DNA of 64,000 bases from an uncultured Actinomycetota bacterium (GCA_963783835.1 CAWAOX010000015.1:324667-388666), one strand, 5' to 3'; shown: positions 1-13,073, counted from the first letter of the stretch. Notes: a model not told the origin generated them from the sequence alone. Numbers and translations: made by a program.

Positions 1-396
1 ATCGACTGTGTCGGCACCGATCATGCTCCTCACGCTCCGCAGGAGAAGGAAGTGCCCATGGAGGAAGCGCTGAGCGGCAGCACGGGTCTGGAGACCGCGT
101 TCGCCGCCCTCCACACCGGTCTGGTCCTGAGCGGCGAATTACCTCTCGGCCGGCTCATCGAAGCCATGTCGAGCGGTCCCTGCCGGGTATTCGGGCTGCC
201 CGCGCCCCGGCTGGCGGTGGGCGCTGCCGCCGACTTCTGTGTCGTGGACCGGGATGAAGTCTGGACCGTGACTCCGGCGACGTTGCGGGGCAGGAGTCGC
301 AACTGCGCGTTCCTGGGCGAGAGCCTCACCGGCCGGGTGCGGTTGACGGTGGTCGATGGGGCGCGCCGCTTCGCGCGCGCCCGGGGGGAGGCCTGA
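1..396 (+). CDS. pyrC: dihydroorotase, C-terminal fragment (5' end outside window)
   Basis: Frame continuous from position 1. The translation [17 protein letters not shown] contains the DxHxAPH motif of dihydroorotases. It is followed by carA in a pyr-operon arrangement. Stop TGA at 394-396 overlaps the carA ATG. Confidence 0.8.
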
Positions 397-1592
397 TGTA
401 CCGGGGCGACATACCGGGGTATGTCGTGCTCGACGACGGCACGGTGTTCGGCGGCTGTGGCTTCGGATCCCTGGGTAGCGTGTTCGGCGAGATAGTATTC
501 AACACCGGCATGACCGGCTATCAGGAGATAGCGACCGACCCGTCCTACCACGGGCAGATGGTCACCTACACCTACCCCATGATCGGCAACTACGGCGCCT
601 CCGACCACTTGCTCGAGTCGGACGAGGCTCACTCCCGGGCGATCGTCGTGCGGGAAATCAAGAACACGGCCTGGAACGGCACCTGTTCCCAAGCGTGGGT
701 GGATTGGCTCACCGAGCGAGGAATCGTGGGGGTCGCCGGCGTGGATACCCGAGCGCTGACCAGGCGCATACGCGACCGCGGGGCGATGACCGCGTGCGTC
801 GCCGCCGGCCACGATCTCAAGGTCGACGACCTCCTCGACGCGGTCCGCTCTTTTCCCGGCATGGCGGGTCGGGATCTGGCCAGCGCCGTCACCTGCTCGG
901 AACCGTACGAATGGGAAGGCGACCCCGTGGCGCCGGAGCCCCGGTTTCGGGTCGTGGCCTACGATTTCGGCCTCAAGCGCAGCATCCTCCGGAATCTCGC
1001 TGCCGTCGGCTGCCGGGTGACCGTCGTACCTGCACACTGGACGGCCGAACAGACCCTGGCGATGAGACCGGACGGGGTCTTCCTTTCGAACGGCCCCGGC
1101 GATCCGGCCGCGGTCGACTACGCGGTCGATACGATCAAGGGGCTTCTGGGCAAGATCCCGGTGTTCGGGATCTGCTTGGGCCATCAGTTGCTTGCGCAGG
1201 CCGTCGGCCTCTCGACCTACAAGCTCAAATTCGGCCACCGGGGTATCAATCACCCGGTCCGCAACTACCTGACCGGCCGCATCGAGATCACCAGCCAGAA
1301 CCACGGCTTCGCGGTCGAACCCCCCGAGATGGTGCGCGCCGCCCTCGAGCGCGGCTCCGTGGTCGGAGAGGGGGGCATCTCCGGGTTGAGCGCGGCCGAC
1401 ATGATGCTGGACTCGGCATACGGGCCGGTCCAGATAACCCATCTCAACCTGAACGACGGTACGGTGGAGGGACTGCGCCTTCTCGATATTCCCGCCTACT
1501 GCGTCCAGTATCACCCGGAGGCCGGGCCCGGGCCTCACGATAGTCACTACTTGTTCCAGCAGTTCGCGGAGGCCATGACGGCGTCGCAATAG
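396..1592 (+). CDS. carA: carbamoyl-phosphate synthase small (glutaminase) subunit
   Basis: 398 aa. N-terminal motif [21 protein letters not shown]. Glutamine amidotransferase class I segment with GICLGHQLL catalytic-Cys context. Translationally coupled to pyrC (ATGA overlap). Confidence 0.93.
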
Positions 1593-1628
1593 GCGTTCCG
1601 GCGGCGGTCCCGAAGAGAGGGGGAGACG

Positions 1629-2094
1629 ATGCTCGCGGTAGGTGACAAAGCGCCGCTCTTCGTGGCGGCGGGCAGTGACGGAGAGGTCGACCTGGGCGGG
1701 CTGCTCAAAGAGAAGTCTGTCGTGCTCTACTTCTTCCCCCGCGCTCTGACCCCTGGCTGAACGATCGAAGCGGTTGAGTTCAACCAATCACTCCCTGAAT
1801 TCGAGAAGCTGGGTGTGGCGGTCGTGGGCACTTCGGTCGATCCGGTCGCCAGACTGCAGAAGTTCCGCGATAAGTACGAGATCAAGTTCCCCTTCGCCAG
1901 CGATCACGATCGGGCTATCGGCACGGCCTATGGGACGCTGAAGGGCGGCCCCGAGAGCTCGCACGAGCGGGACACGGTCGTCATCGGCAGGGATGGGGTC
2001 ATCTTGCTGGCTTACCGAGCGGTCGGCGCCCAGGGTCACGCCGCGGATGGTGCTCGCCGACGTGGAGCAACTCCGGGGCGAGAGCCTCGTCTGA
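1629..2094 (+). CDS. bcp: thiol peroxidase Bcp/PrxQ family, with in-frame TGA at the peroxidatic Cys position (candidate selenoprotein) and an apparent +1 frameshift in the last ~15 codons
   Basis: ATG 1629. Translation MLAVGDKAPLFVAAGSDGEVDLGGLLKEKSVVLYFFPRALTPG[TGA 1758-1760]TIEAVEFNQSLPEFEKLGVAVVGTS... aligns to E. coli Bcp YFYPKAMTPGCTVQAC...GVDVLGIS, so the TGA sits where the catalytic Cys belongs. The same frame reopens immediately (track ORF 1815..). Near 2046 the Bcp-like C-terminus (..GHAAD-VLADVEQLRGESLV*) continues in the +1 frame and ends at TGA 2092-2094. That gives a typical ~155 aa Bcp. Confidence 0.6.
1772..1785 (+). promoter_or_regulatory. SECIS-like hairpin downstream of the in-frame UGA of bcp
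   Basis: GGUUG-AGUU-CAACC (5 bp stem, 4 nt loop containing GU) begins 11 nt after UGA 1758-1760. That is the spacing typical of bacterial SECIS elements. The stem is short, so this is only suggestive. Confidence 0.3.
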
Positions 2095-2103
2095 TCGCCC
2101 AGA

Positions 2104-3570
2104 ATGGACTCGGATCCGATCATCGTTTGGTTCAGGCGCGACCTCCGCATTGCGGACAACCCCGCGCTACTGCATGCCGCCCGGCACGGGCGGCCGGTCA
2201 TTCCCGTGTATGTGGCCGGTTGGGAGGATGGCGACCCCTGGGCCCCGGGAAAGGCCGGGCGATGGTGGCTCGAACAGTCCCTCCGCCAGCTTGCCGTGTC
2301 TCTCGCTTCACGAGGGGCGCCTCTCCGCACGCTGCGCGGTAGGGCCGAAGAGCAGCTGCCCCGGTTTGCGCGCGAGATGGGGGCAAGGGAGGTCGTATGG
2401 AACCGGCTTTACGAACCGTATGTACGGGAACTCGACCGCCGGGTGGCAGCGGGTCTTGAGCGGGACCGGTTGCGGTGGCGCGCGTTCGACGCCGCGCTAC
2501 TGTTCGACCCCGAGAGTCATCTTTCCCGCTCGGGCAGACCCTTCACGCAATTCACCGCGTTCTGGCGCAGTTGCACGTCGCTGCCCGAGCCGGCGCCGCC
2601 CGAGCCTGAGGTCGGCGTGCTGCCGGGCATAGAAACAGCCCCGGACGAGCACGTGCCGGAGCCGGTCTCGCCCTGGGAACCACGTGCCGGCGAAACGCGA
2701 GGATGGGTGCCGGGCGAGGCCGGCGCGTACGCTCACCTCGAGCGCTTCCTGGAGGAGGGGTTGACCGATTACGATTCGTCGCGGGACTTTCCGGGCAGCG
2801 ACGGCACGTCGCGACTGTCGCCCCATCTGCACTTCGGGGAGATAGGTCCGCGCCAGGTGTGGCACGCCGTGCGAGAGGCGGTCTGGGCTGGCACAGGCGC
2901 GGGTGCCGCCGCGGCCCCGGGCCCGGCGTCGTTCCTGCGCCAACTCGGCTGGCGCGAGTTTGCGCATTACCTGCTGGTGCACTTCCCGCATATACCAGAA
3001 GAGCCCTTCCGTCCCGAGTTCGCCGACTTTCCGTGGGAGGAGGACCCCCAGGGATTCGACGCTTGGAAGCGCGGAGAGACCGGCTATCCTCTCGTGGACG
3101 CGGCGATGCATCAACTCCTGACCGAGGGGTGGATCCACAACCGCGCGCGCATGGTGGCAGCCTCCTTTCTGACCAAGGACCTTCTGATTCCCTGGCAGCA
3201 AGGCGCGGCGTGGTTCTGGGAGCGTCTTGTCGACGCCGACCTGGCGAACAACACGCTCGGCTGGCAATGGACGGCGGGATCGGGACCCGATGCCGCTCCT
3301 TACTTCCGGATCTTCAATCCCTTGTTACAGGCGCGCCGGTTCGACCCTGAGGGGGCGTACGTGAGCGCGTGGCTCGACCAAGCCTCCGGCCGGGCAGAAG
3401 CGGGGCAGGCGCCCCCTAGCCCGATCGTCGACCACGGAGAGGCTCGAGCCCGGGCTCTGGCGGCGTTCAGAGGCATCCGGCGGGTGGGGCCCCCCGACAC
3501 GCGGGCGTCACATGCTCAGACTCCCAGCGCCGGCGGTCATTCCCCCTTGCCAAGTGATATGCAAGTATGA
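2104..3570 (+). CDS. phrB: deoxyribodipyrimidine photolyase (FAD-dependent CPD photolyase/cryptochrome family)
   Basis: 488 aa. N-terminal IVWFRRDLRIADNPAL. C-terminal FAD-binding region GWIHNRARMVAASFLTKDLLIPWQQGAAWFWERLVDADLANNTLGWQWTAGSGPDAAPYFRIFNP. Confidence 0.92.
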   Translation: MDSDPIIVWFRRDLRIADNPALLHAARHGRPVIPVYVAGWEDGDPWAPGKAGRWWLEQSLRQLAVSLASRGAPLRTLRGRAEEQLPRFAREMGAREVVWNRLYEPYVRELDRRVAAGLERDRLRWRAFDAALLFDPESHLSRSGRPFTQFTAFWRSCTSLPEPAPPEPEVGVLPGIETAPDEHVPEPVSPWEPRAGETRGWVPGEAGAYAHLERFLEEGLTDYDSSRDFPGSDGTSRLSPHLHFGEIGPRQVWHAVREAVWAGTGAGAAAAPGPASFLRQLGWREFAHYLLVHFPHIPEEPFRPEFADFPWEEDPQGFDAWKRGETGYPLVDAAMHQLLTEGWIHNRARMVAASFLTKDLLIPWQQGAAWFWERLVDADLANNTLGWQWTAGSGPDAAPYFRIFNPLLQARRFDPEGAYVSAWLDQASGRAEAGQAPPSPIVDHGEARARALAAFRGIRRVGPPDTRASHAQTPSAGGHSPLPSDMQV

Positions 3571-3615
3571 GACGGTCTATTCACCGCTCGTAGCTCGCGC
3601 ACAGGAAGGCGACTG

Positions 3616-4113
3616 TTGGACGAACAGAACATTCCCGAGCCGCAAATCCCCGTCGAGCGACAGCCATCTCCCGAGCAGCCGCCCGAGACCTACCGGGGCG
3701 ACGTCTTGCCGCCCTCCTCTCCGGCTGCGCCTCCGTATCCGCCGTCCTCCTATCCGCCCCATAGAGGCAGGCATGCGGGGGGATGGTTGATAGGCGTCAT
3801 CGTCATCGTCATCGGGGTCGTCTTTCTTGGCCAGAACCTCGGTTGGTGGTCCGGGTGGTCACTAAACAACTGGTGGGCGTTGTTCATTCTCATTCCCGCC
3901 TTCGGATCGCTGGCCGGTGCCTGGAGGCAGTACGTCGCGAACGGCCGCCGGTTCGGCGGAGACGTCGCGCGTCCTCTCTTGATCGGGGTTCTGCTCGTGT
4001 TTGTGACGCTGGCCTTCTTGCTCGAGTTGGATTGGTCCTACATATGGCCGATAGTGCTCATCCTCGTCGGCGTGGGGCTGCTGGTGGGGCGGTGGCGGCG
4101 CCGGGACGGCTGA
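3616..4113 (+). CDS. hypothetical membrane protein (Pro-rich N-terminus followed by ~4 predicted TM helices)
   Basis: 165 aa ORF. N-terminal PEPQIPVERQPSPEQPPETY...PPYPPSSYPP low-complexity segment, then hydrophobic stretches (WLIGVIVIVIGVVFLG, WWALFILIPAFGSLAGAW, LLIGVLLVFVTLAFLL, IWPIVLILVGVGLLVG). Confidence 0.55.
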   Translation: MDEQNIPEPQIPVERQPSPEQPPETYRGDVLPPSSPAAPPYPPSSYPPHRGRHAGGWLIGVIVIVIGVVFLGQNLGWWSGWSLNNWWALFILIPAFGSLAGAWRQYVANGRRFGGDVARPLLIGVLLVFVTLAFLLELDWSYIWPIVLILVGVGLLVGRWRRRDG

Positions 4114-4166
4114 TGCAGATGCATGGTGCGACTCGGGTTCGGTAGACAATCGACTAAGGAGGGGTC

Positions 4167-5774
4167 ATGGACGGCGAAGTAAGGTCATCGGCAGCGAAGG
4201 AGATAAGCGCAGAGCGGCGGATGCTCAAACGGTCGCTGACGCTGCTGCCTCTCTTCGGGATCATCTATTTCACCGTAAGCGGCGGCACGTTCGGCATCGA
4301 GTCCCTGTTCAGCTATTCGGGCGCAGGCATGGCGCTGCTGCTGATCGCGGTGATCCCCTTCGTCTATAGCATTCCGAACATCCTCATGGTGCGGGAACTG
4401 CAGTCGATGATGCCCGTCGAGGGCGGCTACTATCACTGGACGAAGCAGGCATTCGGCCCGTTCACAGGATTCATGACAGCCTGGATGAACCTGGTGATGT
4501 CGTGGGTCGACGTGGCCATCTATCCGGTGCTCGGAGCGGTCTATCTGGGCTTCTTCTTCCCGGCCATCAACGACGGCATCGGAGGCATCCCCGGCTGGGT
4601 CATGCAGTGGATCGTGGCCATCGTCATCATCGCGGTCATTTCGGTCCTGCAGATAAGGGGAGCCCGCGTTGCCGGGATGACCAGCGTCTGGATCGGCGCG
4701 ATTCTCTTGATCCCCTTGCTGATCATGAGCGTGCTCGGTTTCTGGAACTGGGGAGTCCACGGCAGCAGCTTCCAGATGTCGTTTCTGCCGCAGGACACAG
4801 GGATGACGGGAGCGTTCTCCGTCGGGCTCTTCGTGGTCATGTGGAACTACATGGGCTGGGAGCTACCTACATCGGCCGGCGACGAGATCGTCAAGCCGAG
4901 GCGCACCTATCCGCTCGCGATGGCCCTGGTGCTTATCGCCGCCATAGCAACGTATGCCATTCCGACCGTCGCCGCCCTGTACGGAGGCGCCGGTGACAAC
5001 AACAAGGTCCTGTTGTGGGGCATCGAGGAATCAGAGGAGGGGGCCGGCATCGGGGCCGACCTGGAAGCAGCGGGCATGACGCCGGAGCAGATGGAGGCCG
5101 CGGGCGTTGATGCGACGAGCTCCGAAGGCTGGTGGCTCCCTGATATCGCCAAGGCCGTGGGGGAGACTACCTCGGGTGCCGGCAGCGGCTTTGCCAGTTT
5201 CCTCGGCAACTTCATGATGGTGGCGGCCATCCTCTCCATGGTGGGACTCTTCATCGGGTGCAGTATCTCGGCCACACGTATCCCGTTCGCCTTGTCGGAG
5301 GACGGGATGATGCCCAAGCCCTTGGTGCGGGTCCACCACAAGTGGGGCACGCCCTGGATCGCCATCATCATAAGCGGCGTTGTCTTTGCCGTCTTCTCGG
5401 TGAATGCGTTTGCCTTCCTGGTCGTCCTTGACGTGCTTCTCAACTCGCTGACCCTTCTCCTGGAATTTGCCGCCCTGTGGTGGCTGCGCCGCAAGCTCCC
5501 CGAGATACCGAGGAGCCGTATTCCCGGTGGCTTGATAGGCCTGTTCATTGTGACCATCCTTCCCGCCTTGGTCATCATCCTGGCCATCTATAGCCAGGTC
5601 ATCGAAGAGGGCTGGCAGTCCATATGGTTGGCCGGCATCGCAATAGCCATCGGGGCCATCCTCTACTTCGTGATGAAGCGGTTCGTGAAGCCGGGCATCC
5701 CGGATATCGATCCGTTCACACCTCAAGAGGAAGTCGCTCCGGTGGCGGAAACGGCCCCGGCACTCTTGAAGTGA
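4167..5774 (+). CDS. APC-family amino acid permease
   Basis: 535 aa with about 12 hydrophobic segments. N-terminal FTVSGGTFGIESL motif typical of the APC superfamily. A GGAG-type RBS (aggagg) precedes ATG 4167. The true start may be the downstream ATG at 4221. Confidence 0.8.
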   Translation: MDGEVRSSAAKEISAERRMLKRSLTLLPLFGIIYFTVSGGTFGIESLFSYSGAGMALLLIAVIPFVYSIPNILMVRELQSMMPVEGGYYHWTKQAFGPFTGFMTAWMNLVMSWVDVAIYPVLGAVYLGFFFPAINDGIGGIPGWVMQWIVAIVIIAVISVLQIRGARVAGMTSVWIGAILLIPLLIMSVLGFWNWGVHGSSFQMSFLPQDTGMTGAFSVGLFVVMWNYMGWELPTSAGDEIVKPRRTYPLAMALVLIAAIATYAIPTVAALYGGAGDNNKVLLWGIEESEEGAGIGADLEAAGMTPEQMEAAGVDATSSEGWWLPDIAKAVGETTSGAGSGFASFLGNFMMVAAILSMVGLFIGCSISATRIPFALSEDGMMPKPLVRVHHKWGTPWIAIIISGVVFAVFSVNAFAFLVVLDVLLNSLTLLLEFAALWWLRRKLPEIPRSRIPGGLIGLFIVTILPALVIILAIYSQVIEEGWQSIWLAGIAIAIGAILYFVMKRFVKPGIPDIDPFTPQEEVAPVAETAPALLK

Positions 5775-5811
5775 GGGGCAGCCGCTCCAGAACTGTCAAC
5801 GAGTCGAGGAG

Positions 5812-7030
5812 ATGGACATGAAGGTTCTCCTGGTAGGCGTAGGTGGAGTGGGCGAAGCCATGGCGGTCCTATGCAAGGATAGACCCTGGGTCGAGAAGCT
5901 GGTCCTCGCCGACTACAACGTCGAGCGCGCGAAAGAGGTCCAGGCGAAAGTGGGCCGCGCCGGCCGCATGCCCGTCGAGTTCATCGATGCGGGCGACAAA
6001 GAACAGATCGAGGCGCTTGGCCCGGCGCCACGGGGTGGACCTGATCCACAACGCGGTGGACCCAGTGTTCAACGAGGCCATCTTCGACGCGGCGTACGAG
6101 GCCGGCTGCCACTACATGGACATGGCCATGACGCTTTCCACCGCTCATGCCACCAACCCGTACTCGACGTGCGGAGTCAAGCTGGGCGACTACCAGTTCG
6201 AGCGGGCCGGCGCGTGGGAGAAGAAAGGGTTGCTTGCTTTCGTCGGCATGGGGGTCGAGCCGGGGATGGCCGACGTATTCGCCAAGTACGCCGAGAAGCA
6301 TTTGTTCGACGAGATCGAAGAGATCGGGGTCCGCGACGGGGCCAACCTGGAGGTCCGCGGCTACGAGTTCGCGCCGAACTTCTCTATCTGGACCACCATC
6401 GAGGAGTGCCTGAACCCGCCTGTGGTCTGGGAAGAGGGAAAGGGCTGGTGTACCACGGAGCCGTTCTCGGAGCCGGAGGTGTTCGACTTCCCCGAAGGCA
6501 TCGGTCCGGTGGAATGCGTCAACGTGGAGCACGAGGAGGTCCTGCTCGTGCCCCGCTGGGTCAAGTGCAAGCGGGTCACTTTCAAGTACGGTCTGGGCGA
6601 CCAGTTCATCGGCGTCCTCAAGACCATCAAGATGCTCGGTCTGGACAACCGCTTCCCTATCGACGTCAAGGGCGTGCAGGTGGCGCCGCGGGACGTGGTG
6701 GCGGCCACCCTTCCCGATCCGGCCCACTTGGGCGACCAGATGTTCGGCAAGACATGCGCGGGAACGTGGGTGAAGGGCAGCAAGGACGGCAAGCCGCGCC
6801 AAGTCTACCTGTATCAGGTGGCCGATAACGAGACCTGCATGAAGGAGTATGGAGTCCAAGCCGTGGTCTGGCAGACGGCGGTCAGCCCGGTCATCGCCTG
6901 GGAATTGCTCGAGACCGGGGTGTGGAAGGGCGCCGGAGTCCTCGGCCCCGAGGCCTTCGACCCCGACCCCTTCGTGGAGATGATGCCGAAATACGCGTTC
7001 CCCTGGGGGCTCAAGGAGATGACTGCCTGA
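5812..7030 (+). CDS. saccharopine dehydrogenase family NAD(P)-binding oxidoreductase (apparent +1 frameshift near 6020)
   Basis: N-terminus in frame 1: MDMKVLLVGVGGVGEAMAVLCKD...DKEQIEAL (Rossmann GxGxxG). Around 6015-6025 (cttggcccggcg) the protein-like sequence continues in frame 2: ARRHGVDLIHNAVDPVFNEAIFDAAYEAGCHYMDMA...FVGMGVEPGMADVF, through to stop 7030. This is typical of saccharopine/carboxynorspermidine dehydrogenases. Confidence 0.7.
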
Positions 7031-7031
7031 C

Positions 7032-7307
7032 GTGGGCTGGCTGTTCAACCGGGAACGGGTACTCTTTCGCACCCACCAGCCGCCTTTCCGGACGCCGGAG
7101 TGGGCCGCGGGGGCCCTCGTGGAACAGGAAGGCACGTTGTACCGGATCACGCGCTGGAGAGAGTTGCCGCCGGTGGCGCTGGAGCGCGGCGGGTCGGTGC
7201 ACGAATGGGAAGTCATGGGCCGGAAAGCGTCGGGCAGGGAGGTCCGTGACGAGTTGGCCAAGGGAGCCCAGTCCCTGTTGGAGGGCGAGAGCGCCAAAGA
7301 TCCGTGA
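7032..7307 (+). CDS. small hypothetical protein
   Basis: 91 aa ORF (GTG start) that fills the 365-nt gap between two + strand genes. No recognisable motif. Codon usage resembles the neighbours. Confidence 0.3.
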   Translation: MGWLFNRERVLFRTHQPPFRTPEWAAGALVEQEGTLYRITRWRELPPVALERGGSVHEWEVMGRKASGREVRDELAKGAQSLLEGESAKDP

Positions 7308-7397
7308 GGCGAAAGACTGCCTGTAGCCTCTCCTGACGGCTATGATTGACACGCTGCGTGAGCGAATCCAGACGACCAAGACCCGGGGGTTAGAGAG

Positions 7398-8783
7398 ATG
7401 TCATCGGGAACGATGAAGGTGGACCGGAAGCGCATCGCCGAGTTGGTGGAGCGGGAAGAGAAGCGTCTCGAGGATTCCACTCCCAAGTCCTACGAACTCT
7501 TCAAGAGGGCCTCCAAGTCGCTCGTCAACGGCGTGTCTTCCAGTTATCAGATGCGCGACCCCTATCCCGTGTACTTCACGCACGGAAAGGGCTCCAAGAT
7601 CTACTCGGTGGACGGCCTTGAGCTCAGTGACTTCCACAACGGTTTCGGCTGTATGGTCCAGGGACACGCCCACCCGGCCATCATCGAGGCCATCAAGAAG
7701 CGCTGCGAGCTGGGGACCCAGTTCGCGCTGCCCACCGAGGACTCGATAGTGGTCGCCGAGTATCTGGCCGAGAACTTCCGGTTGCCCAAGTGGCGCTTCG
7801 TGAACTCGGGGTCCGAGGCGACGATGGACGCCATCCGTATCGCCCGGGCCTTCACTGGGCGCGAGCAGGTGATGAAGATATTCGGTTCGTACCACGGGCA
7901 CCACGACTACGTGATGGTCAGCTTGGGCATCGCCGACTGGGGCGACATCGGCGAGCGCGACAACTACAAGTCGGTCTCGTACGGCGCAGGCATACCGAAG
8001 GTTGTCATCGAGATGACCTCGGCGGTGCCCTTCAACGACGCTCCCATGATGGAAGCGCGGATCCAGCACCTCATCGACGAGGGTCGCAAGCCCGCCTGCG
8101 TGATCATGGAAGCGGCCATGATGAACCTTGGCGTCGTTCTCCCCGAGCCCGGCTATCTGCAGGCGGTTCGCGATATAACCAAGAAACACGGCATCGTGCT
8201 CATCTTCGACGAGGTGAAGACCGGTATCTGCACGGCTGCCGGCGGCGCCGTCGAACGCTGGGGCGTCGTGCCCGATATGGTCACGCTGGCGAAGGCGTTG
8301 GCCGGCGGACTGCCCTCGGGGGCCATCGGCGGCTCGGCAGAGGTCATGAGCGTGGTAGAGACCGGCAAGGTCTACCAGGTCGGCACCTACAGCGGCAACC
8401 CGCTGTCGATGGCCGCTGCCCGGGCGAGCATGGAAGAAGTCATGACGCCGGATGCCTACAAGCATCTCAACTATCTGAACGACCGCCTTATCTCCGAGTG
8501 CGACGCCGTCTGCGCCACGTACGACTTCCCCGGCTACACGGTCGGCATCTCGTCCAAGGGCTGCGTCAACTTCGCCAGTGGCAAGATCACCGACTACGAG
8601 TCGTTCATCCGCTACCAGGACTTCGAGCTCTGCAACCTGGCCTGGCTCTACAACATCAACCGCGGTGTCATCATGGCGCCGGGGCGCGAAGAGGAATGGA
8701 CGTTGTCGGTACAGCACACCGACGAGGACATCGACCGGTACGTCAACGCCTTCGAGGGTTTGGTGAAGGAAGTGCTCGCCTGA
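7398..8783 (+). CDS. class III PLP-dependent aminotransferase (glutamate-1-semialdehyde aminomutase / omega-transaminase-like)
   Basis: 461 aa. SxGxE/PLP-fold signatures (FVNSGSEATMDAIRIAR, IFDEVKTG with the Lys of the PLP-binding region). GGAG RBS upstream. Confidence 0.85.
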   Translation: MSSGTMKVDRKRIAELVEREEKRLEDSTPKSYELFKRASKSLVNGVSSSYQMRDPYPVYFTHGKGSKIYSVDGLELSDFHNGFGCMVQGHAHPAIIEAIKKRCELGTQFALPTEDSIVVAEYLAENFRLPKWRFVNSGSEATMDAIRIARAFTGREQVMKIFGSYHGHHDYVMVSLGIADWGDIGERDNYKSVSYGAGIPKVVIEMTSAVPFNDAPMMEARIQHLIDEGRKPACVIMEAAMMNLGVVLPEPGYLQAVRDITKKHGIVLIFDEVKTGICTAAGGAVERWGVVPDMVTLAKALAGGLPSGAIGGSAEVMSVVETGKVYQVGTYSGNPLSMAAARASMEEVMTPDAYKHLNYLNDRLISECDAVCATYDFPGYTVGISSKGCVNFASGKITDYESFIRYQDFELCNLAWLYNINRGVIMAPGREEEWTLSVQHTDEDIDRYVNAFEGLVKEVLA

Positions 8784-8989
8784 CCCGGCAGAGGGTGAGC
8801 ATCCTCCGTTTCCTGCTGGGCATGCGCCCCCGCCGGCGGGCGGCGAAGCCGATGGAAGTGGCCGGGGGACCGGAGGTGCAACGCTGAGCTTGGGGACTGC
8901 TCCTCCATAAGGCCGCTGCCCGGGGTATCCTTGGCCAAGACAGCAGGCTACGACCCGGCGGAGCACATGCGCCGACCGACGGAGGGTGG

Positions 8990-9490
8990 ATGGAGACTAT
9001 CCTGACGCGCCGCAGCATCCGTAAGTACACGGCACAGCCCGTTTCCGACGATCTCGTCACCGAGTTGCTCCGGGCTGCGATGGCTGCGCCTTCAGCCGGG
9101 AATCAGCAGCCCTGGCAGTTCGTCGTCGTGCGCGACCGGGCGACTCTCGAGGTGGTATCGACGGCCAACCCATACGGGGGCATGGCCCGTGACGCTCAGT
9201 TGGCTGTGATCGTCTGCGGTGATCTGGAGCGCGAAGAGCGTCCCGGCTTCTGGGTGCAAGATTGCGCGGCGGCGACCGAGAACCTCCTCATCGCGGCCCA
9301 CGATGCCGGGCTGGGAGCCGTTTGGTGCGGCACATATCCCCGCGAGGAGCGCATGCAGCCTATCGCGGTGGCTCTTGGTCTGCCCGAGCAGGTGATCCCG
9401 TTCGCAGTGGTGCCGATAGGGTATCCTGCCGAGCACCCTGCTCCGGCCGATCGTTACGATCCAGGCCGTGTCCACTTCAACCGTTGGTAG
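8990..9490 (+). CDS. nitroreductase family protein
   Basis: 166 aa. N-terminal TRRSIRKYT...PSAGNQQPW is the classic NAD(P)H nitroreductase signature. Confidence 0.85.
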   Translation: METILTRRSIRKYTAQPVSDDLVTELLRAAMAAPSAGNQQPWQFVVVRDRATLEVVSTANPYGGMARDAQLAVIVCGDLEREERPGFWVQDCAAATENLLIAAHDAGLGAVWCGTYPREERMQPIAVALGLPEQVIPFAVVPIGYPAEHPAPADRYDPGRVHFNRW

Positions 9491-9496
9491 GGAGGA

Positions 9497-10096
9497 ATGA
9501 TGAAGAAGTCACTCGGCCCCGGCACGTGGCTTTACCCGACGCCTGTGTTCGTCGTGGGCACCTACGACGCCGCCGGTAAGCCCAACGTCATGACTGTCGC
9601 GTGGGGTGGGATCTGCTGCAGCAAACCGCCGTGCGTCGCCATATCGGTCCGCAAGGCCACGTACACCTACGGGAATCTCATGCAGCGTCGGGCGTTCACC
9701 ATCAGTCTGCCCACCCAGGATCAGGTGGTGCACGCCGACTACTTCGGCGTGGCGTCAGGGCGGGACACCGACAAGTTCGCTGCTGCCGGGCTCACGCCAG
9801 TCTCGTCCGACCTGGTCGAAGCGCCCTATGTGGGCGAGTTCCCATTCGTGCTCGAGTGCAAAGTGGTCCATGTGGCCGAACTCGGCCTCCATACGCTGTT
9901 CGTGGGCGAGATCCTCGACGTCAAGGTCGACGAAGGCTGTCTGGACGCCAAGGGCAAGCCGACCGCCGAACTCGTGCGGCCCATCTGGTGGGGGCCCAGC
10001 GAGAACCAGTACTACGGCCTGGGCGAGAATCTGGGACGGGGCTTCTCCATCGGCAGAGCTCTCGAGACCGGCTCCGATGGCCGGGCGTCGAAGTGA
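9497..10096 (+). CDS. flavin reductase-like (FMN-binding split barrel) protein
   Basis: 199 aa. N-terminal YPTPVFVVGTYDAAGKPNVMTVAWGG matches the flavin reductase domain. RBS gggagg 5 nt upstream. Confidence 0.82.
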   Translation: MMKKSLGPGTWLYPTPVFVVGTYDAAGKPNVMTVAWGGICCSKPPCVAISVRKATYTYGNLMQRRAFTISLPTQDQVVHADYFGVASGRDTDKFAAAGLTPVSSDLVEAPYVGEFPFVLECKVVHVAELGLHTLFVGEILDVKVDEGCLDAKGKPTAELVRPIWWGPSENQYYGLGENLGRGFSIGRALETGSDGRASK

Positions 10097-10137
10097 TACA
10101 GAGCCGCGCTGTCTCGAGGAGAACGGTGTCTAGTTGG

Positions 10138-10962
10138 GTGAAAAGCAGGACGGTTGTTCTGGCTACCCCAGCCCTCTTCATTGGGGTGGTTGCCGTGGCG
10201 GTCTTTGCGCTCGCGTTCACGGGCGGCTGCTCGGGCGAAGGTCCCGGGGCTCCCACTGGGCCCGACAGCGTTGTGGTCCTCACGGTGGAGCAAGCTCTGG
10301 CCGCCGAGGAAGGCCGAGAGCTCAACGTCCAAGGAGCAGTGTTCGCGACCGGTGACCAGACGATGCTGGTCTCCGCGTTGGCCGAATCCTACCCTCCCCA
10401 AGCCGGTGGGGCGACCCTGCCGGTCAAGGGGCTCGATCTGGACGGCCTCGTGGGGCTGACTTCCACCGCGGGGCAGGTGGGCGTCGCCGAGGTCACGTGG
10501 TCGGACTATTGGCCGGTGCTCACGGGGGTCGTCAAAGAGGGCGTTCTCGAGGTCCAGGGGATCCCGCGGGTCGAAGAGGACATCAGCTTCGAAGGCATAA
10601 GGCTGCGGTTCAGCCCGGTGAGCGAGCCGGTCAGTTCGGGCGATCAGGTCTGGTGGGCCTTCGATGTGACCAACACCGGCCAGGCGCCAGTGCGACTTGT
10701 GTTCTCAGACGGCCAGCGCGGAGACCTGATCCTGAGCCAGGGAGACGTGGATGCATACACCTGGAGCGCCGGCAAGAGCTTCACCCAGGGCGTCGAGATC
10801 GTCACGCTGGAGCAGGGCAAGTCCCTCTCGGTGGTGTTGCACGACACCCTGGATGTCCCAGCGGGGGACTATGCCGTGACCGCTCGGGTGACCGCGATGG
10901 TGGGCCCGTCCGGCTCAGAGGCTCCTCTGCCCGAGATCACGTCGACTCTAACGGTCCATTGA
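10138..10962 (+). CDS. putative lipoprotein (BsuPI-like C-terminal region)
   Basis: GTG 10138 gives MKSRTVVLATPALFIGVVAVAVFALAFTGGCS, a signal peptide with a lipobox (FTGGC). The track ORF 9601..10962 is an N-terminally over-extended version that overlaps the upstream gene. The C-terminal half (VWWAFDVTNTGQAPVRLVFSDGQRGDL) resembles intracellular proteinase inhibitor-like beta-sandwich domains. Confidence 0.6.
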   Translation: MKSRTVVLATPALFIGVVAVAVFALAFTGGCSGEGPGAPTGPDSVVVLTVEQALAAEEGRELNVQGAVFATGDQTMLVSALAESYPPQAGGATLPVKGLDLDGLVGLTSTAGQVGVAEVTWSDYWPVLTGVVKEGVLEVQGIPRVEEDISFEGIRLRFSPVSEPVSSGDQVWWAFDVTNTGQAPVRLVFSDGQRGDLILSQGDVDAYTWSAGKSFTQGVEIVTLEQGKSLSVVLHDTLDVPAGDYAVTARVTAMVGPSGSEAPLPEITSTLTVH

Positions 10963-10982
10963 CGGTACCCGGCGATGGCCGC

Positions 10983-13073
10983 GTGAACTATCGTGTTGGG
11001 GCAGATGTTGGGGGGACCTTCACCGACCTGGTGGCCATGGATGAAGCAGGTAGAGTCATCGTGGCCAAGGCCCCCACCACTCCGGCCGACCAGTCCGACG
11101 GTGTGATGGACGCGGTCTTCAAAGCGGGGATCGACCTGGCCCAGGTCGACTTCTTCTCCCACGGCACTACGGTCGGGGTCAATGCCGTCATCGAGAACAA
11201 GGGCGCCAGGGTCGCGGTCATCACGACCGAGGGCTTCAGAGACTCGCTGGAGTTGCGCCGGGGACAGCGGGTCATCGATAACCCGGACGACATGTACAAC
11301 CTGCAGATGGACCTGCCCCAGGACTATGTCGGAGGCTACGATCCTCTCGTGCGGCGACCGCTCCGCTTCGAGGTCCCCGAGCGTCTCGATTTCCGAGGCA
11401 ACGTGCTGAAGCAGATGGACGAGCCAGTAGTCTGGCAGATCGCGGAAGAGCTCCGCAAACGGGACGTCGAAGCCGCCGTCATCTGCTATCTGTTCTCGTT
11501 CATGAACCCGGTGCACGAGCAGCGCACTGCCGAGATCCTGCGGGAGGCGCTTCCCGGTCTCAGCCTGTCGATCTCGAGCGAGATCCTCCCGGTCATCCGC
11601 GAGTACGAGCGTCTCAGCACAACCACCGTCAACGCATACGTGATGCCCATCATGCAGTCGTATCTGCAGAGGCTGCGCGACCGTTTGAGGGCGGGTGGGT
11701 TCCAGAAAGAGCTCTACCTCATGCAGTCGAGCGGCGGGATCATGTCGGCGGCCGTCGCGGCCACCCGGCCCGTCTACACCATCGACTCCGGACCCGCGGG
11801 AGGGGTGTCCGCAGCGGCGCAGCTTGGCGTCTCGCTCGGCTATCCCGACGTGATCTCCTTCGACATGGGAGGGACCACGGCCAAGATCTGCTGCGTCCGG
11901 GACGGCAGGCCCGAGGTGACCACGCGCTTCTGGCTGGGCGGCCGCTATTTCGTGGGTGTTCCCGTGATGGACATGGTGGAGATCGGCGCGGGCGGGGGCA
12001 GCATCGCCTCGGTAGATCGGGCCGGCGCCGTACATGTGGGCCCTCGGAGCGCGGGCTCGGTGCCCGGCCCCGCCTGCTACGGCAAGGGTGGCCACGAGCC
12101 GACCGTGACCGACGCCGACCTGGTACTCGGCTATATCAACGCCGATTACTACCTGGGCGGCGACATGACGGTCGACGCAGCGGCCGCGCGAGAAGCCATC
12201 AGGGAGAAAGTCGCCGTCCGGCTGAACATGGGGGTGGCCGAAGCCGCTCATGGCATCTACCGGCTGGTGAACGCGAACATGATCGGGGCGATGCGGGTCG
12301 TCACCGTCCAGCGTGGGCACGATCCTCGGGACTTCACCCTTGTGGTGTCGGGGGGGACGGCCGCTATCCACGCCGTGCGCATGGCCCAGGAGCTCCGCAT
12401 CCCCCGGGTGATCATCCCTCTCAACGCAGGAGTGTTCTCGGCCGTTGGTCTGATCACCGCCGACGCTCGCTACGACGTCCATCGTTCTTACGTCGTCCGG
12501 CTCTCTCAGGCCGACCCCGGCCGCCTGGAAGCCATCTTCAAGGAGAGCGCGAGGGAAGCGGCCGCGCGGATCGAGGAACTGGGGTTCTCGCCGGACGAGG
12601 TAGTCACTCGCTACGAGATCGACATGCGCTACCTGGGTCAGGCCCACGAGGTGCCGGTGGAGGTGCCGCGAGAGCTGATCGAGGGAATGGATCAGCAGAC
12701 CGTCGGCAAGCTCGGCGCACTCTTCCACGAGAAGCATCTCCACCTGTTCGGACACGACTCCCGGGATTCGGAGGTCGAGTTCATGACGCTCTCTGTGTCG
12801 GCCGTAGGCCCTCGAGAGAGGGGCGAGATGCCCGAGGTGGCCGCGGGCACTCCCGACCCCGGTCCCGCGCACAAAGGAACGAGGAAGGTCTATTTCGAAG
12901 AGGCCGGCGGCTACGTGGATTGCGACACCTACGAGCGGTCGCGGCTTGCGGCGGGAATGGTGATCGCGGGGCCGGCCATCGTCGAGCAGATGGACACCAC
13001 GACGGTGCTGCCCCCGGGAGAGACGGCGATGGTCGATCGATTCGGCACCCTCATAGTGGAGTTGGCGCTGTGA
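10983..13073 (+). CDS. hyuA: ATP-dependent hydantoinase/oxoprolinase family, A (beta) subunit
   Basis: GTG start gives MNYRVGADVGGTFTDLVAMDE, the canonical HyuA N-terminus. About 697 aa. The track ORF 10497..13073 is over-extended. Confidence 0.88.
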   Translation: MNYRVGADVGGTFTDLVAMDEAGRVIVAKAPTTPADQSDGVMDAVFKAGIDLAQVDFFSHGTTVGVNAVIENKGARVAVITTEGFRDSLELRRGQRVIDNPDDMYNLQMDLPQDYVGGYDPLVRRPLRFEVPERLDFRGNVLKQMDEPVVWQIAEELRKRDVEAAVICYLFSFMNPVHEQRTAEILREALPGLSLSISSEILPVIREYERLSTTTVNAYVMPIMQSYLQRLRDRLRAGGFQKELYLMQSSGGIMSAAVAATRPVYTIDSGPAGGVSAAAQLGVSLGYPDVISFDMGGTTAKICCVRDGRPEVTTRFWLGGRYFVGVPVMDMVEIGAGGGSIASVDRAGAVHVGPRSAGSVPGPACYGKGGHEPTVTDADLVLGYINADYYLGGDMTVDAAAAREAIREKVAVRLNMGVAEAAHGIYRLVNANMIGAMRVVTVQRGHDPRDFTLVVSGGTAAIHAVRMAQELRIPRVIIPLNAGVFSAVGLITADARYDVHRSYVVRLSQADPGRLEAIFKESAREAAARIEELGFSPDEVVTRYEIDMRYLGQAHEVPVEVPRELIEGMDQQTVGKLGALFHEKHLHLFGHDSRDSEVEFMTLSVSAVGPRERGEMPEVAAGTPDPGPAHKGTRKVYFEEAGGYVDCDTYERSRLAAGMVIAGPAIVEQMDTTTVLPPGETAMVDRFGTLIVELAL

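Follow-up and report, generated by a model that had tools for sequence, protein, structure and literature searches.

The stretch of DNA analysed here, 64,000 nucleotides in length and hereafter called the window, carries close to its start a gene for a peroxiredoxin of the Bcp/PrxQ type, which we call prx, at positions 1629-2094 on the plus strand, as are its parts described below. Its neighbours are carA on one side and a DNA photolyase gene on the other, and a pyrimidine-biosynthesis cluster of pyrR-like, pyrB, pyrC and carA genes precedes it (396-3570 in the window; 1078-12321 in the related locus L022). The cluster of the relative is interrupted by genes for pyruvate:ferredoxin oxidoreductase and OsmC, and carB does not directly follow carA. 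The extent and identity of the whole prx gene are supported by a Pfam match, matches to Bcp structures in the PDB, collinearity with orthologues and synteny.

Gene and protein identity

A purine-rich, Shine-Dalgarno-like stretch, AGAGGGGGAG (1615-1625), is visible on inspection just 5' of the ATG at 1629 and is the putative ribosome-binding site of prx. Codons 1-43 (1629-1757; MLAVGDKAPLF...YFFPRALTPG) are conserved in frame in all relatives and supply two residues, Pro and Thr, to the active-site motif PxxxTxxU. They are followed by an in-frame TGA (1758-1760), the proposed selenocysteine codon, which occupies the peroxidatic position as judged from a column of TGA and Cys codons in the relatives. 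Codons 45-140, placed by alignment, then continue in the original frame (1761-2048) and include the conserved catalytic Arg, R114 (HERDTV). Across the UGA the sequence reads ALTPG-U-TIEAVEFNQSLPEFEK, and the motif residues are P37, T41 and U44 (FFPRALTPGU). The last 14 codons, VLADVEQLRGESLV, together with a TGA stop, occupy 2050-2094 in the +1 frame relative to the ATG, as indicated by translation and by the C-terminus of the family. With the UGA read as selenocysteine (Sec, U) and one surplus base dropped, the gene has 154 codons, as do its orthologues. Invariant columns in our two alignments, A1 and A2, include R114, T116, G136, H137 and A138.

The reconstructed protein matches the Pfam AhpC-TSA family (PF00578) with an E-value of 2.6e-28 and a score of 98.9 bits, far above the gathering cut-off of 26, and its closest solved structures are all of the Bcp or AhpC/TSA family (PDB codes 5enu, 5iph, 3gkk, 3drn and 2cx3). 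It misses, on the other hand, the NCBIfam equivalog cut-offs both for E. coli-type Bcp (NF006960; 79 against 140 bits) and for Deinococcus-type PrxQ (NF053650; 73 against 260 bits), as well as those of the selenoprotein models PrxU (NF040737; 34 against 270 bits) and Prx-SUH (NF045827; 22 against 298 bits). Judged by these scores the predicted protein is a relative within the Bcp/PrxQ subfamily rather than an equivalog and, since all these cut-offs are missed, would represent a distinct clade within the Sec-peroxiredoxin family.

At the +5 position, where atypical 2-Cys Bcp proteins have their resolving Cys, the window protein has Val, and it contains no Cys anywhere; the same complete lack of any other Cys is seen in 33 of the 34 Sec-type relatives. 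The protein is thus of the 1-Cys (here 1-Sec) type, a known variant of Bcp.

Much of this had been anticipated in a sequence-only reading of the locus, made before any database search. That reading placed a TGA in frame with the ATG at 1629, as the sequence confirms, assigned the gene to the Bcp/PrxQ peroxiredoxins, as the Pfam and structure matches bear out, and set the TGA at the peroxidatic Cys, with which it does indeed align in full-length homologues (GGCT or SGCT at the site). Its replacement of the resolving Cys by Val is equally correct. Its count of 238 open codons from ATG 1629 is literally true, but is a product of the surplus base around 2046-2050, which it did not mention.

Conservation of the TGA codon

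A stop codon at the catalytic residue could be a peculiarity of a single sequence. It is not: 46 loci besides the window share a TGA at this very codon (14 from metagenome-assembled genomes, or MAGs, 30 metagenome contigs and two found via protein matches), while eight relatives have TGC or TGT. Among species-representative MAGs, TGA is present at 14 of 19 loci, all 19 being Actinomycetota and several labelled Gaiellales. The MAGs of the TGA type have the WGS prefixes CAVRJE01, CAWGGI01, CAWJKE01, CAZQDY01, JAAYJE01, CAWJKH01, CAYNPL01, MELN01, DAIRFC01, CAWDOM01, JAJFUK01, JAAYCW01, CAVZSN01 and CAVTPV01, and those of the Cys type CAWFCN01, CAZOJR01, CAWFCL01, CAVQZD01 and CAWJDT01. It is likewise TGA that is found in 30 of 31 metagenome contigs spanning the site, which were drawn from many samples and assembled for the most part from short reads. 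The supporting loci as a whole derive from independent short-read and long-read assemblies. Including the window there are 47 TGA-type loci, with 36 distinct sequences around the site, against eight Cys-type loci. TGA-type relatives with intact frames extend down to around 50-65% protein identity.

A tree built by neighbour-joining groups the TGA-type genes in a clade that is mostly Sec, with a few Cys forms nested inside it, and places a large all-Cys clade alongside. Interchange of Sec and Cys has been described for selenoprotein families (PMC1794560), and the tree pattern appears to be just such an interchange.

A tblastn screen for Sec/Cys pairs, covering all in-frame TGAs in about 640 kb of related loci, returned prx as the sole case of an exclusive TGA (45) and Cys (8) column in a credible frame. 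The other 18 candidates were Arg/Pro/Ser-rich peptides in shadow frames, and no second selenoprotein gene was detected in the loci screened. Shadow frames also dominated the output of a GC3-based scan for further TGA-interrupted genes, which was set aside.

Coding constraint and the genetic code

Purifying selection on the two sides of the TGA was compared across 13 TGA-type genes that are intact. Averaged over these, pN/pS is 0.29 over the 43 upstream codons and 0.27 over 91 downstream codons, so that both halves of prx appear to be under equal purifying selection. Equally low values on both sides fit neither a stop at codon 43 nor a start after the TGA.

The genetic code hereabouts seems unremarkable. 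TGA is the stop codon of nine of 11 confirmed neighbouring genes and is also the terminator of prx itself, while no internal TGA or other internal stop was found in the six intact neighbours that were checked. TGA is therefore a normal terminator in this region and the code has not been reassigned; stop-codon usage rules out that explanation.

The hairpin downstream of the UGA

Beginning 11 nt past the UGA, at nucleotide 15 counted from the U of that codon, there is a SECIS-like hairpin (1772-1785) in which GGUUG (1772-1776) pairs with CAACC (1781-1785) around an AGUU loop (1777-1780). The sequence-only reading had drawn this same hairpin at this same distance, and it is located exactly there. 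The case for its being real comes from covariation. With five stem pairs in each of 34 distinct TGA-type sequences there are 170 possible instances, and pairing is found in all of them. Three of the five pairs vary, in ten instances, and do so on both sides every time, there being no one-sided change: G-C becomes C-G in six sequences and A-U in one, and U-A becomes C-G in three. None of 500 column shuffles reached the observed covariation score. Furthermore, none of the 47 TGA-type loci lacks the hairpin, which only two of the eight Cys-type loci possess (L012 and L059).

Constraint on the protein offers no explanation of this coupling since the partners lie in different codons, the third base of an Ala codon pairing with the first base of a Gln or Gly codon, and the third base of a Val codon with the first base of an Asn or Asp codon. 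Codon choice in the hairpin is also distinctive. The Val codon is the rare GTT in 30 of 34 Sec-type sequences, although GTT accounts for just 6% of Val codons in neighbouring genes, and the three GTC cases are those with a compensating GAC. The Glu codon is always GAG in Sec-type genes, whereby the loop G is fixed. At the protein level, 33 of the 34 Sec-type proteins have Val at +5, a position that varies in the Cys-type. Within the window, on either strand, the prx codon is the only TGA flanked on each side by 40 or more open codons and followed 9-14 nt downstream by a hairpin of this kind.

Both hairpin-bearing Cys-type genes, L059 (58-522) and L012 (459-911), have TGC at the site and keep a perfect 5-bp stem, GGTTG..CAACC and GATTG..CAATC, respectively. 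L012 falls just outside the main Sec clade. The sister of L059 in the tree is a TGA-type gene, and L059 seems to have been converted recently from Sec to Cys, leaving a fossil hairpin behind.

The orthologue comparisons proposed in the sequence-only reading have therefore come out in its favour: the codon is TGA in 46 further loci and TGC or TGT in eight, and the downstream structure is conserved with compensatory changes only, in 34 distinct TGA-type sequences. The TGA, which differs from a Cys codon by a substitution, recurs at the same base in those 46 loci, and this likewise counts against a sequencing error, as that reading had argued. A search of the covariance-model kind that it also proposed, run with Rfam, counts on the other side: there is no Rfam match at gathering scores anywhere in the window and no match to any SECIS family at E-values up to 10 in 1600-2100. 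Existing Rfam models may simply not cover this hairpin.

Thermodynamics are of little help here, the single-sequence fold energy being no better than that of shuffled sequences (z = -0.2) and hence uninformative. The minimum free energy structure of the single sequence has instead a competing 9-bp pairing of UUGAGUUCA (1774-1782) with UGAAUUCGA (1796-1804), which we rejected as showing no covariation beyond shuffles in both alignments. This complementarity arises because there are two Glu-Phe codon pairs (GAGTTC and GAATTC); it dominates single-sequence folding and could mislead automated predictors of SECIS elements or structure. A longer stem, extending the hairpin by 8 bp, was also rejected, being paired in a minority of sequences, and there is no conserved lower stem.

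The SECIS-like hairpin of the actinobacterial prx genes is unusually compact and well supported. A bolder proposal is that the 14-nt hairpin alone (a 5-bp stem and AGUU loop, with neither a bulged U nor a conserved lower stem) is the complete natural SECIS of this clade. We consider this a possibility worth stating but, on balance, doubtful. Were it true, the element would be among the smallest natural bacterial SECIS elements, pointing to a SelB with simpler RNA needs and offering a possible compact tag for recombinant selenoproteins.

A frameshift near the C-terminus

The length of the window gene, 466 nt, is not a multiple of three. All relatives read GHAAxVLADVxxLR... through this region without a shift, while the window has one nucleotide more at around 2046-2050 (GAT-G-GTG), which shifts the frame. 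The true C-terminus, VLADVEQLRGESLV followed by a stop, is conserved in all relatives and in the window copy ends at 2092-2094. It is because of this surplus base that the frame of the ATG stays open for 238 codons.

This frameshift is peculiar to the window copy, and several observations bear on its nature. The gene order pyrC, carA, prx, photolyase, LiaF-like, amino-acid permease, saccharopine dehydrogenase and aminotransferase is shared, at 76-97% protein identity, between the window and a MAG contig from a relative (loci L001 and L022), the two being collinear. Over the 11 kb compared, a second intragenic frame switch is found in the window, at around 6000-6020 in the saccharopine dehydrogenase-like gene. 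Conversely, one nitroreductase gene is whole in the window (8990-9490) but split in the relative (L022 17891-18392). The prx genes of three further MAGs (L017, L018 and L019; at around 10001-10465 in each) contain internal frameshifts as well. Such scattered single-base indels are typical of these assemblies, and the frameshift at around 2046-2050 is therefore most likely an assembly indel. If the indel were real, the window copy itself might be inactive.

As to the frame switch of the saccharopine dehydrogenase-like gene (5850-6025 in the window), residues 13-68 of the relative's protein match frame 1 and residues 61-403 match frame 2. This single-base indel is less than 4 kb from that in prx and points to an indel-prone assembly. 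L017, L018 and L019 all come from bins labelled "MFD", as does L001, the closest relative of the window.

Selenocysteine machinery

Searches with tblastn using E. coli and Rubrobacter xylanophilus queries found no selA, selB or selD in the 64-kb window or in the approximately 640 kb of related loci. No tRNA-Sec was found in either, ARAGORN having reported no tRNA. The genes of the Sec machinery are usually unlinked to those of selenoproteins, so their absence from some 640 kb is uninformative rather than negative. In a protein search with the Rubrobacter SelA, the matches were 73-100% identical to the query and were not tied to prx-bearing genomes. Among SelA representatives at the 50%-cluster level, identity falls from 70% to 58% or less, leaving many equal candidates. 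The literature searched held nothing relevant on selenocysteine in Thermoleophilia or Gaiella. A Sec-decoding trait in this lineage is accordingly something that we infer from the prx gene itself.

Proposed decoding and catalysis

Taken together, these results make it very probable that 1629-2094 encodes a 154-residue Bcp/PrxQ-type peroxiredoxin with selenocysteine as its peroxidatic residue. In the mechanism that we propose, the UGA at 1758-1760 would be recoded during translation by Sec-tRNA(Sec) delivered by SelB, itself recruited by the small hairpin at 1772-1785. That hairpin lies within the codons for A-V-E-F-N, whereby the protein sequence there is constrained too. Since there is no resolving Cys, the selenenic acid formed by reaction with peroxide would have to be reduced from outside, by a thiol partner of which a thioredoxin-like protein is one example. 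What the sequences show is that the TGA is conserved, that coding constraint acts on either side of it, that the hairpin covaries, that the protein belongs to its family and that TGA otherwise serves as a stop; the roles of SelB and Sec-tRNA, the incorporation of selenium and the nature of the reductant are presumed.

Alternative explanations

The most obvious alternative is that prx is a nonsense-mutated pseudogene, ending after 43 residues and decaying, with the frameshift at around 2046-2050 as a second lesion. Two lesions within one 466-nt gene might suggest as much, as might the failure to find Sec machinery in the window and in about 640 kb of related loci. Yet the same TGA persists in 46 other loci, down to around 50-65% protein identity and with frames intact; pN/pS is low and equal on both sides of it; and Cys is the only residue that ever alternates with TGA at this codon. 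The supposed second lesion is private to the window, where another indel lies close by, and it is a different gene that is split in the closest relative. We regard a pseudogene as very unlikely. A sequencing or assembly error in place of TGC or TGT is scarcely conceivable: the window and its nearest relatives do come from indel-prone assemblies, but the error here would need to be of another kind, a substitution, and to recur at one and the same base in 46 independent loci, many of them short-read contigs and from different samples. Conservation of the TGA, selection and covariation of the hairpin together weigh against a decayed gene or a miscalled base, and they favour, strongly, the candidate selenocysteine peroxiredoxin that the sequence-only reading had put forward.

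Two further explanations accept that the TGA is genuine. The codon could lie between two genes or products, a 43-residue peptide and a re-initiated protein of about 92-109 residues, and it is true that many "peroxiredoxin" database entries of 87-109 residues begin just past the TGA and that a 43-residue ORF has been called upstream of one of them. However, such a split would part the motif Pro and Thr from the catalytic Arg and lose the peroxidatic residue entirely, full-length Cys homologues are collinear across the junction, and the downstream starts vary from entry to entry (M, L or V, at various positions) in the manner typical of arbitrary choices by gene callers. We find this extremely unlikely. 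Alternatively the UGA could be recoded without selenocysteine, through near-cognate read-through by Cys or Trp, stimulated by the hairpin, or through a locally altered code. In favour of this, the Sec machinery of the lineage is known only by inference, the hairpin falls short of a canonical SECIS in size and has no match among the Rfam SECIS families, and two copies have been translated with Trp by JGI pipelines. But TGA is the standard terminator of the neighbours and of prx, a peroxiredoxin with Trp as its peroxidatic residue would be inactive and, were Cys the desired product, the TGC or TGT codon of the relatives would be simpler. The position of the hairpin equals that of the E. coli minimal SECIS. 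Exclusive alternation of TGA and Cys at a catalytic redox Cys is the classic signature of selenoproteins (PMC1088965, PMC1794560). Recoding without selenocysteine is therefore, in our judgement, unlikely.

Annotation and wider significance

The presence of a probable Sec-containing peroxiredoxin in these organisms is far from evident in current databases. The nearest database entries, at 73-89% identity, are all 87-109 residues in length and begin just past the position of the TGA, while full-length entries of 154 residues are more distant and have Cys wherever the residue was checked. Codons 1-43 are called by gene callers as an orphan 43-residue AhpC-TSA fragment. Two JGI genes, on the short contigs L057 (562-1026; Ga0643526_0556426) and L058 (461-925; Ga0673046_0399625), have products with Trp at the peroxidatic position although the DNA there is TGA; since these stored products do not match the code-11 translation, the pipeline evidently read TGA as Trp. 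In essentially every record examined, then, prx is misannotated, either as fragments of 43 and 87-109 residues or with an active-site Trp.

The window gene, as predicted here, is a new and systematically misannotated actinobacterial member of a known selenoprotein family. It would extend the Sec-peroxiredoxins to widespread uncultured Actinomycetota of soil, sediment and bioreactors, prx being common in samples from wetlands and digesters, and, if it is confirmed, these lineages must carry the Sec-decoding trait. It also provides a natural data set on the co-evolution of a minimal SECIS with the protein that contains it, comprising 34 distinct sequences in which all variation is compensatory, and Cys revertants having a fossil hairpin. 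The main practical value lies in annotation and in this clean example of SECIS/protein co-evolution; knowledge of selenoproteins as such is unchanged by it.

Comparison with known systems

The proposed protein is readily compared with others. Cys-type Bcp/PrxQ proteins, such as E. coli Bcp and those of Xanthomonas campestris (3gkk and 5iiz) and Burkholderia (5enu), share its fold family and active-site context and, among solved structures, are its best sequence matches, with E-values of 1e-24 to 1e-18. They differ in using Cys, many of them with a resolving Cys at +5; the window protein would instead use Sec, has Val at +5 and is otherwise free of Cys.

The sequence-only reading had supposed that a selenocysteine-containing Bcp would be unusual in a high-GC genome. 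Anaeromyxobacter is a high-GC organism, so that high GC is not unusual for the Sec-peroxiredoxin family, and the supposition does not hold: Bcp-type members, including those of Anaeromyxobacter dehalogenans, were catalogued as early as 2006. Three were listed in that species, each with the PxxxTxxU motif (PMC1794560 supplement 4), alongside others from Geobacter metallireducens, Syntrophobacter fumaroxidans and Syntrophus aciditrophicus (PMC1794560 supplement 4; PMC13188914). Sec-peroxiredoxins in general (PF00578, PxxxTxxU) are an established bacterial selenoprotein family (PMC13188914, PMC1794560, PMC5029168), which has grown from 12 sequences in the 2006 survey to 91 in 78 organisms by 2016 (PMC1794560, PMC5029168). 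The window protein resembles the Bcp-type members of 2006 in its Pfam family, its Bcp-like length, its proposed peroxidatic Sec within FYPKxxT(S/P)GU-T-xEA and the existence of Cys homologues. The best match among them is Anaeromyxobacter Prx_1, with 41% identity over 146 residues and an E-value of 3e-30. The window protein differs from these members in sequence, being 36-41% identical, and in a shorter loop before the catalytic Arg. Identity at this level suggests a separate clade, from uncultured Actinomycetota (the records being labelled Gaiellales or "Actinomycetota bacterium").

PrxU of Eubacterium acidaminophilum is a Sec-peroxiredoxin demonstrated by experiment (Sohling et al. 2001, as cited in PMC13188914). 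Both it and, as proposed, the window protein are peroxiredoxins with a peroxidatic Sec, but PrxU belongs to a different peroxiredoxin subfamily. For the hairpin, the natural comparison is with the minimal SECIS of E. coli fdhF, which comprises an upper stem-loop of 17 nt at 11 nt from the UGA, with G23 and U24 in its loop (Liu et al. 1998, as cited in PMC8659212). The window hairpin is distinguished from the element so described by its 14-nt length, uninterrupted 5-bp stem, AGUU tetraloop and lack of a bulged U. What the two share is that each is a small hairpin starting 11 nt past the UGA, at nucleotide 15, with G-U in its apical loop.
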